Below are positions 1,881 through 62,737 of a stretch of DNA of 64,000 nucleotides, in pieces. Every line of letters begins with the position of its first letter. Within the stretch, counting starts at the first letter, position 1. The stretch lies in the NCBI GenBank assembly GCA_964016885.1, contig OZ024752.1, positions 39,866,001-39,930,000 on the forward strand. The letters are read 5' to 3'. This stretch comes from Eledone cirrhosa (Eukaryota). The notes beneath the pieces are model-generated. The model ran no database searches and had not been told where the DNA came from. It saw only the letters and a program-made list of their open reading frames with translations. The translations under genes and the position numbers were made by a program.

Positions 1881-2185
1881 TTGGCCTTGCAATCGAAATG
1901 TTGTGAGTTCAATTATCAGACCGGGTGATGTGTTGTTTCCTTGAGCAAGACACTTTATTTCACATTGCTCCAGTTTACTCAGCTGTAGAAATGAGATGAT
2001 AGGGACTGGGGTCCATATCATTCCACTGCAAAGTGGTCGTGGAGGTGCCACGGCAAAAAAAGCACCCAGCACTCACTGTAAATGAGGTTGCCGTTAGGAA
2101 GGGCATCCAGCTGTAGAAATCAAGCCAGAATCAGTTCTCGTCCCACCCTTGCAAGCAGCGAAAGGCAGACGTAAAATGATGATGA
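1880..2185 (+). mobile_element. tRNA-derived SINE (family 2), 5'-truncated, (GAT)n tail
   Basis: B-box-like gagttcaatt, core 'ccttgagcaagacactttatttcacattgctcc'; near-identical copy at 52490-52825. Confidence 0.75.
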
Positions 2186-2202
2186 TATATAAATACATAT
2201 AT

Positions 2203-3031
2203 ACAAATATAATTTCAGTGCGATCGTATTTCGGCGGCAGCCAAAACAAAACAAAACGCAATTTTTGAGATATACCGGCAAGCGTTCAATGGACTAGGAA
2301 GCAGCCAGAACAATTAACATACATTATAAGGGCCAGACACATTATAAAAATGGCTGTGAAGTGACAAGCCAGGCAGCCGAGAAAACTAGCAAGCTAAACA
2401 GGTTAACAAAAAATTTACCTGGACCTTCCAGGAACTTGGTGGTAAAATCCAGTGGGATGTTTCTGTGACTCCTAAATCAAGTATACTGTTTGTTTTCGTT
2501 GTAAGCTTTTGGTATAATGATCAAACAAGGTAGACACTTCGTCAACAGGTTTTTGCTCTCAACTGCCTACCAGGTTCAAATGAAGCATTAGTGAAGCCGC
2601 TACCTCATGTGGTTACCCTGGAAGGGAGGTAACCCCTGTTTTTGGTGGGTGGAATCAAAATGTGTAAAGGAATTACAAAAAAATTGCAAAAAACAATGCA
2701 CAAATTGAAGTAAGCTCTCGACCGGGTTGTTTTTAAATAAACTTAAGCAATTAATCAGTCAATAGAATTGTCTAATTGAATTAACTAATTAATTGCTAGG
2801 CCCGGGAGATTAATACAAATATAATTTCAGCGGCAGCCAAAACAAAACGCAATTTTCGAGATATGCCAACAAGCGTTCAATGGACTGGGAAGAAGCCAGA
2901 ACAATTAACATATGTTATAAGGGCCAGACACATTATAAAAATAGCTGTGAAGTGACAAGCCAGGCAGCCGAGAAAACGAGCAAGCTATACAGGTTAACAA
3001 AAAATTTACCTGGACCTTCCTGGAACATGGT
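2203..3031. mobile_element. Element with ~220-bp terminal direct repeats (2203-2441 / 2813-3031); LTR-like or Penelope pseudo-LTR remnant
   Basis: Two diverged copies of tacaaatataatttcag...cggcagccaaaac...cctggaccttcc.ggaac.tggtg flank ~370 bp. Confidence 0.55.
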
Positions 3032-3035
3032 GATG

Positions 3036-3083
<48 letters not shown>

Positions 3084-3086
<3 letters not shown>

Positions 3087-3472
3087 TCATCATCATCATT
3101 CGTCGACTACTGTCGAGATGACGGATCTCACTCTCATGCCCCAGAATTCCCTGTCCCCCATCGCTGCCCCCAGGTCTCATCTACTGATTCCCATATCACT
3201 AGAGATAACGTCAGGGAATGACAGCTTCCTACTCCTAGTCAGGCTGGAGTCAGGGTTCCAGAGCAAGAGAGCGGATATGATTTCATTGCTGGCACGGTGA
3301 CAGTGGCCAGCAAATTGAGCTCTCCGGGATTTTAGAAGGGCATCACAACTTGAGAGGAGATTGGATGGCACATATACCCGCCTCTTAATGAGAGTGCAAA
3401 ACCTATCCTGGAAACGACATCCCACCTTGTCTAAAATCTATGGCAAACTCCCTCGAGCCTCTGCCCTTCTAA

Positions 3473-3473
<1 letters not shown>
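3084..3473 (-). mobile_element. RTE-clade LINE 3' fragment with inverted 5' segment
   Basis: Minus: ALLKSRRAQFAGHCHR...AAMGDREFW + (GAT)n tail. Plus 3340-3473: LDGTYTRLLMRVQNLSWKRHPT...RASALL. Confidence 0.75.
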
Positions 3474-3505
<32 letters not shown>

Positions 3506-3711
3506 CATTACATACACACACATACATAGCTGGGATTGTTAAAAAATAACACAGTAACATTCAACAGGCACCGGGTAATTACCTCCCTTAGCGAGTTATA
3601 TCATGTTCACCGGTGGCAATGCCTTTACCATCTACAATCAGTATGCATAGCGATGTGATGTTATAATACCCTCTCCAAGATTTGTAATTAAGGACCTAGC
3701 CATCGGAACAT

Positions 3712-3752
3712 CTACCCCTGATGATCCCCTCTGGGTGAAACATGTGTAAGAG
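3712..3752 (+). ncRNA. Hammerhead core with decayed stem I
   Basis: ccc-CUGAUGA-u-ccc(cucu)ggg-u-GAAA-caugug-UA-agag; core and stems II/III present, stem I mismatched. Confidence 0.45.
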
Positions 3753-3837
3753 CTATATAAAGATATGTTTTAACGGTTTGTAACTCTTTCATTCACTCAT
3801 TCATTTGGTTATATATCATCATCATCATCATCATCAT

Positions 3838-3870
<33 letters not shown>

Positions 3871-3871
<1 letters not shown>

Positions 3872-4115
3872 CAGAGGAGACTGAGGTTAGCTGGACATGC
3901 TCACCGACATCCAGAGTTGACATTGCACTCAGTGCTCCTTTCGGAGCCCCTACATGGACACACTAGAAGAGGAAGACCAAGGTTAACGTATGTTGATGCC
4001 CTAAGGACAGACACTGGTCTGTTGGAGACGCAGGACATGGCAGCGATAATGAGGGACAGAGACCGCTGGAGAGAACTCGTTCATGGATCTCTGGAATTTT
4101 ACCCGCCTTAGATAG
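3871..4115 (+). mobile_element. RTE-clade LINE 3' fragment
   Basis: RRLRLAGHAHRHPE...RRGRPRLTYVDALRTD...MRDRDRWRELV. Confidence 0.75.
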
Positions 4116-4706
4116 ATATAACAAAGAGGGTGTGGTAAGATACCAGGTGGACCATAACGCATCAGAGTACTCAATACTTGGGCTAGTAGAGTGGATCTAG
4201 CTATCGAAAGGGTTGAACCTCAGCCATCGGGGTCCTGAATCTTTTCATATATATCTATATATGAGAAATCTGCCTCCATGACCCTTTTAAAATGATGATT
4301 ATTTTTCAAGTTTCACTTGGGAAGGAAGGTAAGGGTGGAGAGAAAAGTGCTGCCCCCCACCCCACCCCACCAGTACATTTGCTGAAAGGTGGGTGAATGT
4401 GGCAAGAATAGCTCATGTGAGTGGGCCTACTCTGATCATGCGCCTGTAGGTGGGTGAATTTGAGGAAGAGAGGGGTGCCCTTCCCGGGTGCTCTCGAAGG
4501 CGTTGGGTCATTCAGGATTGGTAGGGTACTTGAGTGAACCCTGGACGGTCATACCCCTATTGGGGAATTTTCCCTGTTGTATTTTTATTGTTATTTATTT
4601 TGTTTACATATTGTATATGTAAACCCCACTGTCCCTGTCTTTTGTATTGTCCCCTACATGTCAGCCCTTGAGGCCAATAAATGAAACTATAATAATAATT
4701 ATTATT

Positions 4707-4894
4707 ATTTCTACTTTTGGCACAAGGCCAGCAATTACCCCAGTGTATTACTGGTACTTTATTTTATCGACCCCCGTAAGGATGAAAGGCAAAGTTAACC
4801 TCGATGGGATTTGAACTTAGAATGGAAAGGGCCATAACTCTATACATCAAACCATGGCGTCCGACCCTCTACCGATACTACCAATCCGCCGCCC

Positions 4895-4895
<1 letters not shown>
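4707..4895 (-). mobile_element. tRNA-derived SINE (family 1)
   Basis: Reverse complement of the 7921-8110 element. Confidence 0.75.
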
Positions 4896-4930
<35 letters not shown>

Positions 4931-4932
<2 letters not shown>

Positions 4933-5613
4933 TTCAATGTGCAGTCCTATAGCGCCAACTGAATACCTAAACAGGCATGACAGAGCTGCACAATACATAC
5001 ATTGGATAATGTGTAAGCATTTTGACCTGCCCCATCAAAAGAATTGGTGGGAGCATCAACCACCTCCCATGCTTGAAAAAGATCACATCTCAATCTTGTG
5101 GAACTTTAGCATCCAAACAGACTGAAAAATAGATGCAAATAGACCTGATATAATACTGAAGGACTTTAAAAAGAGGGTATGCCTGCTAATTGATATGTCT
5201 GTTCCAATAGACAAGAATGTATCTATAAAAACATTTGAAAAATTGAGCAAATATAAGGACCTGGAGATAGAAATTGGAAAAATGTGGAAATTGAGAACTA
5301 AAACAATACCAGTGGTTGTAGGCGCTCTAGGAATGATACCTAAGGGGTCTAATGATTACTTATCGCAAATCCCAGGAAACTCGCGTATAGGAGAAATACA
5401 AAAGATAGTACTAATGGGAACTGCCCATATACTAAGGAAGATTCTGTCAATATAAGTACATCACAAGTCTAACCACCTAAAGATGCATGTGTGTGTATGT
5501 ATGTACTTTCTTGAACATGGCGGACCTTGTTGTCTCTTGAGGTCACTGGTTGTGACTTGGTGATAACTCGTATGAACATAAAGCAAGATAAATGCAACTG
5601 TAATAATAATAAT
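4931..5613 (+). mobile_element. R4/Dong-like non-LTR retrotransposon 3' fragment (restriction-like endonuclease), inserted in (TAA)n
   Basis: YLNRHDRAAQYIHW...RPDII...LIDMSVP...EKLSKYKDLEIE...PVVVGALG; one in-frame stop at 5123; (TAA)n on both sides. Confidence 0.82.
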
Positions 5614-5800
5614 GAAATTATTCTGTACAGTTCTCAGGTGCACTACAACTCCTCCAAGATGCATGTATAGTACATAGAATAATGTATAAATGTCAGGAAA
5701 ATGAATAATGTATGAGTCATGATATACATTTGTGCATGTGTATGGAGGGGGATATCAGGTGTAGTGTTGGCGAATTTCAGGAAGCATGGGAGTTTTAAGA
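5608..5800 (-). mobile_element. CR1/L2-like LINE 3' end fragment
   Basis: Reverse complement matches 48030-48235. Confidence 0.6.
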
Positions 5801-5934
5801 TAAGATTATTTTAATATACTTTGGGAGGGTCATGTTGTTAATAAAAACACACACACCCGTTGGTTTTCACTTCAATTTATTATAAATTTCCGGTTGGTTG
5901 GTTGATTCGATAACCAAAAGGTTGTTTATATATT

Positions 5935-5976
5935 GTCAAAGCTCTTTCATCACACATTCTGTGACCTCCTCAGTGA
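5935..5976 (-). ncRNA. Hammerhead motif, second copy of the 50362 family
   Basis: Minus strand: uca-CUGAGGA-g-gucaca(gaaug)ugugau-GAAA-gagc-UU-ugac; flanks match the 50360-50460 element. Confidence 0.6.
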
Positions 5977-6052
5977 GAAATCTCGCAAAACAAATTCCAA
6001 AACGAATTATTTTAATGTTTTGTATTCATATTCTTTTATTTTTATATTTTAG

Positions 6053-62649
<56,597 letters not shown>

Positions 62650-62737
62650 GTAATGTGTTTTCATTTTGCTTATAACTTTGAAAGTAAATTGATAAAACAT
62701 TTGATTGATTCCTTTCAAGGTGATTGGTAGTATATAC

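Follow-up and report, generated by a model that had tools for sequence, protein, structure and literature searches.

Minimal hammerhead ribozymes in introns of an Eledone cirrhosa cadherin gene as probable ends of Penelope-like elements

Metazoan Penelope-like elements (PLEs) carry minimal type I hammerhead ribozymes in their pseudo-LTRs, and the published examples cleave weakly and solely as dimers (Cervera & de la Pena 2014, PMC4209133). In PAc, a Poseidon element of Anolis carolinensis, RT can start at two internal sites beyond the hammerhead, which defines a tail, the AT-rich target is cut on both strands, and insertion in vitro proceeds without the hammerhead, whose cleavage needs protein (Frangieh et al. 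2024, PMC11167929). A promoter within the pseudo-LTR is also expected from published PLE work. Recorded numbers exceed 6,000 hammerheads in one coral and reach 120,000 retrozyme copies in the axolotl (PMC7229834), whose genome measures about 28 Gb (bioRxiv 10.64898/2026.07.22.740005). A Penelope expansion in coleoid cephalopods is already known, and the giant squid genome yields 235 Rfam hammerhead hits (PMC6962438); a literature search of main texts found nothing on hammerheads in octopus genomes beyond those 235 hits.

Here we analyse 64,000 nucleotides of the Eledone cirrhosa genome (assembly GCA_964016885.1, contig OZ024752.1, positions 39,866,001 to 39,930,000; hereafter the window), in which 13 hammerhead motifs had been predicted. 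All 13 are present. The original prediction gave their low-coordinate ends; we number each by its core C3, at 3718, 7358, 35480, 37050, 38418, 50366 and 61777 on the plus strand and 5973, 30818, 31280, 38089, 50674 and 61668 on the minus strand. Five of them (5973, 30818, 31280, 50366 and 61668) combine a canonical core with three paired stems in type I order, and the hammerhead at 31225-31286 has a stem I of 6 bp, a stem II of 10 bp and a palindromic stem III. The remaining eight fall outside this definition, being decayed or variant in core: stem I is lost (0 bp) at 3718 and 7358; GACA replaces GAAA at 61777; 37050 has GAUA (A14U) with G17; 38418 and 38089 pair a U3-A8 core with GCAA (A13C); 50674 is U3-A8 with a stem I of 2 bp; and 35480 is U4C. 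A search of the window against Rfam gave no match at gathering score, and hammerheads are absent among the E-value matches listed (best 150 of 246). The expectation that ordinary annotation is blind to these motifs is borne out, as is their identification as minimal type I hammerheads of the Penelope or retrozyme kind. The predicted density of one motif per ~5 kb holds if degenerate copies are counted, whereas intact canonical motifs occur once per 13 kb.

We are confident that these motifs are hammerheads of the minimal type I kind and belong to pseudo-LTR ends from about ten PLE families, lying in the introns as 5'-truncated, often inverted copies beside (TA)n tracts and likely inert for the gene (Table 1).

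Table 1. Hammerhead-bearing copies and the host gene in the window
Feature	Positions	Strand	Description
Family E PLE 3' end	3525..3812	+	core 3718, stem I lost; 5' boundary approximate
Older family C relative	5815..5976	-	canonical core 5973, stem I 3 bp
Decayed family A relative	7352..7412	+	core 7358; stems I and II broken
Family F PLE 3' end	30722..30885	-	canonical hammerhead 30756-30826; adjoins (TA)n 30652-30725
Inverted 5'-truncated family F arm and tail	30940..31125	+	second half of hammerhead only; boundaries approximate
Family B PLE 3' end	31178..31345	-	hammerhead 31225-31286, best formed in window
Inverted family B tail	31346..31405	+	runs up to (TA)n 31406-31457
Family G PLE 3' end, terminus inverted	35304..35628	+	U4C hammerhead 35477-35511
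Family I fold-back	36922..37199	.	hammerhead-derived motif 37047-37086 (+), GAUA and G17 family-wide
Family H2 fold-back (96%)	37937..38570	.	U3-A8/GCAA cores 38415-38451 (+) and 38056-38092 (-)
Family C PLE 3' end	50227..50555	+	canonical hammerhead 50362-50404
Family H PLE 3' end	50575..50725	-	U3-A8 hammerhead 50641-50677; boundaries approximate
Family A fold-back, centre is stem I	61620..61769	.	intact hammerhead 61621-61677 (-)
Family D copy	61770..61925	+	hammerhead 61770-61815, GACA; joined directly to family A tail
Host cadherin-repeat gene	6036..62652	+	17 or more short exons in window; extends beyond both edges

The genome assembly (3.0 Gb) was searched with each motif and its flank; the H2 arm as query gave no match, probably through the filtering of common words, and H2 copies were recovered from a genome sample and with an upstream query. 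The 13 motifs resolve into ten repeat families, each with numerous near-identical genomic copies: A (61668 and 7358), B (31280), C (50366, with the 5973 element as a 77% identical relative), D (61777), E (3718), F (30818), G (35480), H (50674), H2 (38418/38089) and I (37050). For each searched family, 40 copies were scored from 352-2394 first-look candidates and are mostly 83-100% identical; F and B sequences are also highly repeated in four sequencing runs (contigs). Further hammerhead families that are absent from the window are numerous (L325-L403) in a content-blind genome sample of 790 kb, made up of 79 stretches of 10 kb each at round coordinates of large contigs. Among them are U3-A8 and U4C families with a long palindromic stem III, such as L401:740+, L375:3954+ and L400:5020-.

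Comparison of copies separates family traits from individual damage. The core reads CCGAnGA in 25/25 loci of family G, a very young family whose copies are 99-100% identical, and in 18/25 loci of family E, and it reads TTGAnAA in 23/25 loci of family H. GCAA was found in all six copies of H2 in the genome sample, four of which are 99-100% identical to the window copy, while GAUA with G17 characterizes the 25 copies of family I inspected. Across the copies compared, the odd cores of G, H, E, H2 and I are family-wide traits. Most family D copies read GAAA and have a palindromic stem III, so the GACA of the window copy appears to be largely private damage.

Longer members of eight of the ten families (B, C, E, F, G, H, H2 and I, which account for 10/13 window motifs) carry a GIY-YIG-type ORF that stops ~0.2-1.2 kb upstream of the hammerhead, and long copies of C, E, G, H2 and I retain the RT part as well. 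The upstream ORF was found in 15/25 loci of G, 7/25 of E, 6/25 of I, 2/25 of H, at least 6/30 of C and 1/25 of F, with two additional F copies (L316 and L345). The links for B (L095) and H2 (L409, one of two fetched copies, with RT and GIY-YIG ORF pieces upstream) rest on a single copy each, in which 1.2 kb separates the stop codon from the motif; for families A and H2, two of the 40 listed places each were inspected (upstream queries). ORFs of other families beside L170, L194, L206, L219 and L239 were left out of these counts. In the family G ORF, Pfam matches to RVT_1 (E 4e-15) and GIY-YIG (E 2e-5) pass the cut-off, those in C, I and H fall near or under it, and the B and E ORF pieces gave none; these pieces share 34-40% identity with the endonuclease regions of I or E. 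Two copies preserve more extended arrangements: L317 (family I) is a motif-ORF-motif tandem plus an inverted copy, and L347 holds two C motifs in tandem 4.3 kb apart, with RT and endonuclease matches upstream of each. Because longer family members carry GIY-YIG/RT ORFs, the short copies are read as truncated ends of ORF-bearing PLEs. As predicted, no PLE ORF is visible in the window itself (tblastn with 8 natural ORF pieces). The proposed genome-wide linkage to RT/GIY-YIG ORFs was found for these eight families and in neither A nor D, and the idea of an independent small non-autonomous population does not hold for most of the motifs, with 10/13 belonging to families with GIY-YIG (and RT) ORFs.

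The ends of the copies are also those of PLEs. A (TA)4+ tract lies within 200 nt downstream of 55/60 sampled motifs versus 540/2713 random positions, a few of these tracts being element-internal TA. Most families have two fixed 3' ends before (TA)n, at C3-to-(TA)n distances of 104/201 nt (B), 189/249 (C), 149/193 (G), 99/164 (H), 158/303 (I) and 92/264 (E). These bimodal 3' ends are the tail signature of PLEs. In the window, where the predicted (TA)n adjacency and fold-back arms are both evident, the arms are truncated copies arranged head-to-head; the plus arm of the family A fold-back is internally deleted and includes part of the tail. The inverted and tandem pseudo-LTR arrangement and the optional tail that mark PLEs are both seen. 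Copies that are cut short at the 5' side to varying extent, stop at one of two fixed 3' positions before (TA)n and are in part inverted head-to-head have the anatomy of PLE pseudo-LTRs. The PLE's own endonuclease and RT likely placed the copies in the cadherin introns: following published PLE work, the GIY-YIG domain would nick AT-rich DNA on both strands and the RT would begin at either of two internal positions past the hammerhead, yielding the optional tail.

At the other end, 5' breakpoints cluster in four families. Relative to C3, they lie within -6..+3 in 28/29 copies of A, -54..-75 in 22/29 of B, -57..-74 in 19/24 of F and -32..-46 in 18/24 of H; the search ranked copies covering the query, which trims shorter copies from these sets. 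No sharp hot spot was seen in C, D, E, G or I. Promoter-like motifs were read against the TATA and Inr consensus sequences. A TATA-like heptamer, with a background of 0.0014 per position, occurs in long copies at -36 (A), -98 (B), -73 (H) and -75 (H2), ~30 nt upstream of the breakpoint cluster in each, in a test that was post hoc and in which H and H2 are related families. An initiator-like YCA is found at -68 (B), -69 (F), -41 (H) and -43 (H2); no TATA-like box was found in family F. The breakpoints could alternatively reflect RT stalling or template switching at a structure. We regard them as likely to mark the pseudo-LTR transcription start. RNA would begin ~30 nt below the TATA-like box, and many of the shortest copies would be run-off cDNAs extending from the internal RT sites to the RNA 5' end. 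Such copies would be dead on arrival, because run-off at the RNA start leaves the promoter out.

An alternative origin for the short elements is that all of them are self-propagating, non-autonomous retrozymes, cut to monomers and passing through circular RNA, that borrow PLE enzymes. The best case for it is family D, a ~339-nt tandem unit without ORF: none of 30 loci has an upstream ORF, 10/30 copies continue upstream for at least 147 nt and there enter the tail of the unit itself, and 3/30 hold two cores 323-339 nt apart. An ORF-less tandem unit with hammerheads in consecutive units, the sequence definition of a non-LTR retrozyme, was found in family D only, and this unit would be non-autonomous, likely mobilised in trans. 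The flank upstream of the first D hammerhead in L128 was tried as element sequence and rejected, since walking upstream gave only two matches. Family A, in which no ORF was found in six long copies, is probably non-autonomous as well; most of its copies fold back at stem I, and its 12 cores in the genome sample include two with native upstream sequence and seven with a visible fold-back junction. Short copies also far outnumber ORF-bearing ones, an endonuclease match lying within 1.6 kb upstream of 7/71 sampled motifs. Against this, eight families are continuous with ORF-bearing copies, tandem arrays of these units are absent from the window, and the ends are not those of cleavage-defined monomers, because 5' ends lie upstream of the hammerhead, away from the cleavage site, and 3' ends fall 90-300 nt beyond the core. 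We therefore consider a retrozyme origin for all short elements unlikely and retain their origin as truncated PLE ends; the small, ORF-less, non-autonomous elements foreseen in the original prediction are real for family D and compatible with the lack of an ORF in A, and do not extend to the other eight.

The predicted placement in introns of a cadherin gene is upheld. The host, a cadherin-repeat gene with multiple exons, runs along the plus strand and extends into both 10-kb flanks, AG/GT-bounded cadherin-like exons being found there and in the window; Pfam Cadherin matches to single exons are weak (best E 7e-5, below cut-off). All 13 motifs are intronic, seven sense and six antisense to the gene. 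Such placement, with one intact canonical motif (50366) in sense orientation, is what co-option for processing or regulating the cadherin pre-mRNA would call for, but the other four intact motifs are antisense, several window copies bear private damaging changes relative to their own families, and the 20 kb of flanking cadherin introns hold no canonical motif. Moreover, the density of canonical motifs equals that of the genome sample, at 0.78 per 10 kb in the window and 0.76 (bootstrap 0.51-1.03) in the sample. With equal density elsewhere in the genome, the cadherin locus is incidental and not specially enriched; co-option is very improbable, and the hammerhead-bearing copies likely do nothing for the gene. 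The ribozymes in these introns are ordinary transposon debris. Extrapolated from large contigs to 3.0 Gb, the sample density corresponds to ~230,000 canonical motifs (150,000-310,000).

Shuffled controls, one of the checks proposed with the original prediction, place the motifs far above background. A strict descriptor found four perfect-core motifs in the window against a mean of 0.03 and a maximum of 1 in 60 local dinucleotide shuffles, and a looser one found five canonical and one U4C motif against 0.02 and 0.00 in 100 shuffles. The genome sample holds 60 canonical, 9 U3-A8 and 2 U4C motifs against 0.25, 1.1 and 0.08 in 12 shuffles. Covariation, a second proposed check, was examined in 14 family A homologues (12 found by BLAST in the genome sample and two from the window), whose relatedness was uncontrolled: 89% of stem cells are paired, slid pairings give 31-46%, and in two stem I pairs both partners have changed, a count that 2/500 shuffles reach. 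D-type relatives also exchange a stem I pair. An origin of the motifs by chance, in DNA rich in AT and repeats, has a negligible probability: looser patterns do yield random matches and the U3-A8 class has a background of ~1 per 790 kb, but the shuffles (5 versus 0.02 in the window, 60 versus 0.25 in the sample) already refute it, and family structure and compensatory stem pairs contradict it. One such random match, a CUGAUGA...GAAA pattern at 11786(-), was rejected; it lies antisense inside the cadherin exon at 11747-11929.

Helix III is self-complementary at 62-100% of positions. In monomer folds, P(15.1-16.1) is at most 0.04 in 12/12 motifs and stem III is unformed; a short palindromic helix III that is absent from the monomer fold is the mark of the minimal PLE hammerhead. 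Predicted dimers (ViennaRNA) favour an intermolecular helix III in 2/12, under an energy model that ignores the catalytic core. Because stem III is a short palindrome, weak cleavage is expected, and the intact motifs would cleave as dimers or with help from PLE protein. Changes at A13, A14 and H17 impair hammerhead cleavage. The cores of H2 (A13C) and I (A14U/G17) are probably dead, judging from these substitutions, and a young family would thus appear to amplify with a probably dead core, which is possibly new.

The window contains other repeats beside these copies. At 61750-61800, the family A tail is fused to the family D hammerhead, a two-family PLE-type chimera in one insertion, and beyond the fold-back at 36922-37199, a TA-rich tract of ~550 nt is followed by a second family I 3' end with tail (37745-37900). 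The family E insertion and (TA)n separate fragments at 3090-3470 and 3872-4111, which we take to resemble the 3' part of an RTE-type LINE ORF. A non-LTR element with the motif of a restriction-like endonuclease, presumably R4/Dong-like, has left nearly identical 3' fragments beside (TAA)n tracts at 4935-5455 (+), 16513-17433 (-) and 17720-18250 (-). Young intronic satellites (94-99% identity) occupy 40367-45058, 55756-57614, 13420-14406, 45635-46865, 47371-48043 and 1-1376, with units of 58 bp x81, 81 bp x23, 55 bp x18, 114 bp x11, 61 bp x11 and 24 bp x57; the 81-bp unit stems from a dispersed repeat. A perfect 149-bp fold-back with a TA-rich centre (52962-53320) has more inverted partial copies nearby, and in a (TA)n-bounded, partly palindromic dispersed element at 35654-35986 the descriptors found no hammerhead core. 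Three tRNA-like heads at 32545-32602, 34796-34853 and 34962-35019, slightly under the Rfam gathering score and two of them inverted around (CA)n/(TG)n, are probably SINEs.

A broader reading, which we offer tentatively and would not yet favour over its negation, is that the genome holds ~200,000 intact-core hammerheads, the densest on record; that RT starting past the hammerhead of the 5' pseudo-LTR runs off at the TATA/Inr start and leaves promoter-less stubs that map the promoter; and that families with canonical, U3-A8 and U4C cores amplify side by side with families whose A13C and A14U/G17 cores seem dead, which would show cleavage to be unneeded for PLE transposition in vivo. A direct test of the role of the PLE hammerhead is offered by young families, whose cores are canonical in some, variant in others and probably dead in others still.

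The hammerheads described here resemble the minimal motifs of PMC4209133 in their short helix I, extra nucleotide before helix II and palindromic helix III, in the coexistence of divergent families per genome, mostly as single motifs from truncated PLEs, in opposite-strand pairs 100-700 bp apart, and in the U3-A8 core variant, of which ~1,300 occur in Schistosoma. They differ in number, with 2,000-9,000 per genome there and ~230,000 estimated here, under descriptors that differ, and the family-wide U4C, A13C and A14U/G17 cores have no counterpart in the main text of that paper. The C-terminal GIY-YIG and (TA)n targets are like those of the EN+ PLE clades Hydra and Neptune (Craig et al. 2021, PMC8557442), as are the tandem and inverted pseudo-LTRs with a tail at one end; tails measure 40-170 nt here versus 30-40 nt there. 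The ORFs of B, E and I have a CxCX5C linker, with a near match in F, as in the definition of the Hydra clade, and those of C, H and H2 have a CX4CxxC linker, with cysteines inside the GIY-YIG, of the Neptune/Nematis type (PMC8557442), both calls being motif-based and leaving family G unassigned.

Family D is like non-LTR retrozymes (PMC7229834; bioRxiv 10.64898/2026.07.22.740005) in its ORF-less ~339-nt unit, two-hammerhead tandem copies and PLE-like ends. It is unlike them in that dimers make up 3/30 copies with no long arrays seen, and it is known from DNA copies alone; the nine other families are not tandem units and differ from non-LTR retrozymes in this respect. The bimodal 3' ends match the tail that PAc derives from two RT starts, a likeness drawn here from sequence only, and the 5'-end hot spots below a TATA-like box have no counterpart in the parts of PMC11167929 compared; our literature search of main texts found no direct description of a TATA-defined pseudo-LTR start. 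Earlier papers already describe PLE hammerheads of the minimal kind and their U3-A8 core, as well as targeting to (TA)n, tails and inversions. What is possibly new is the young family with a probably dead core; the 5' breakpoints below a TATA-like box, which appear to mark pseudo-LTR transcription starts; and the scale, an estimated 150,000-310,000 canonical motifs that are invisible to Rfam and exceed the published counts cited here, with descriptors differing between studies.
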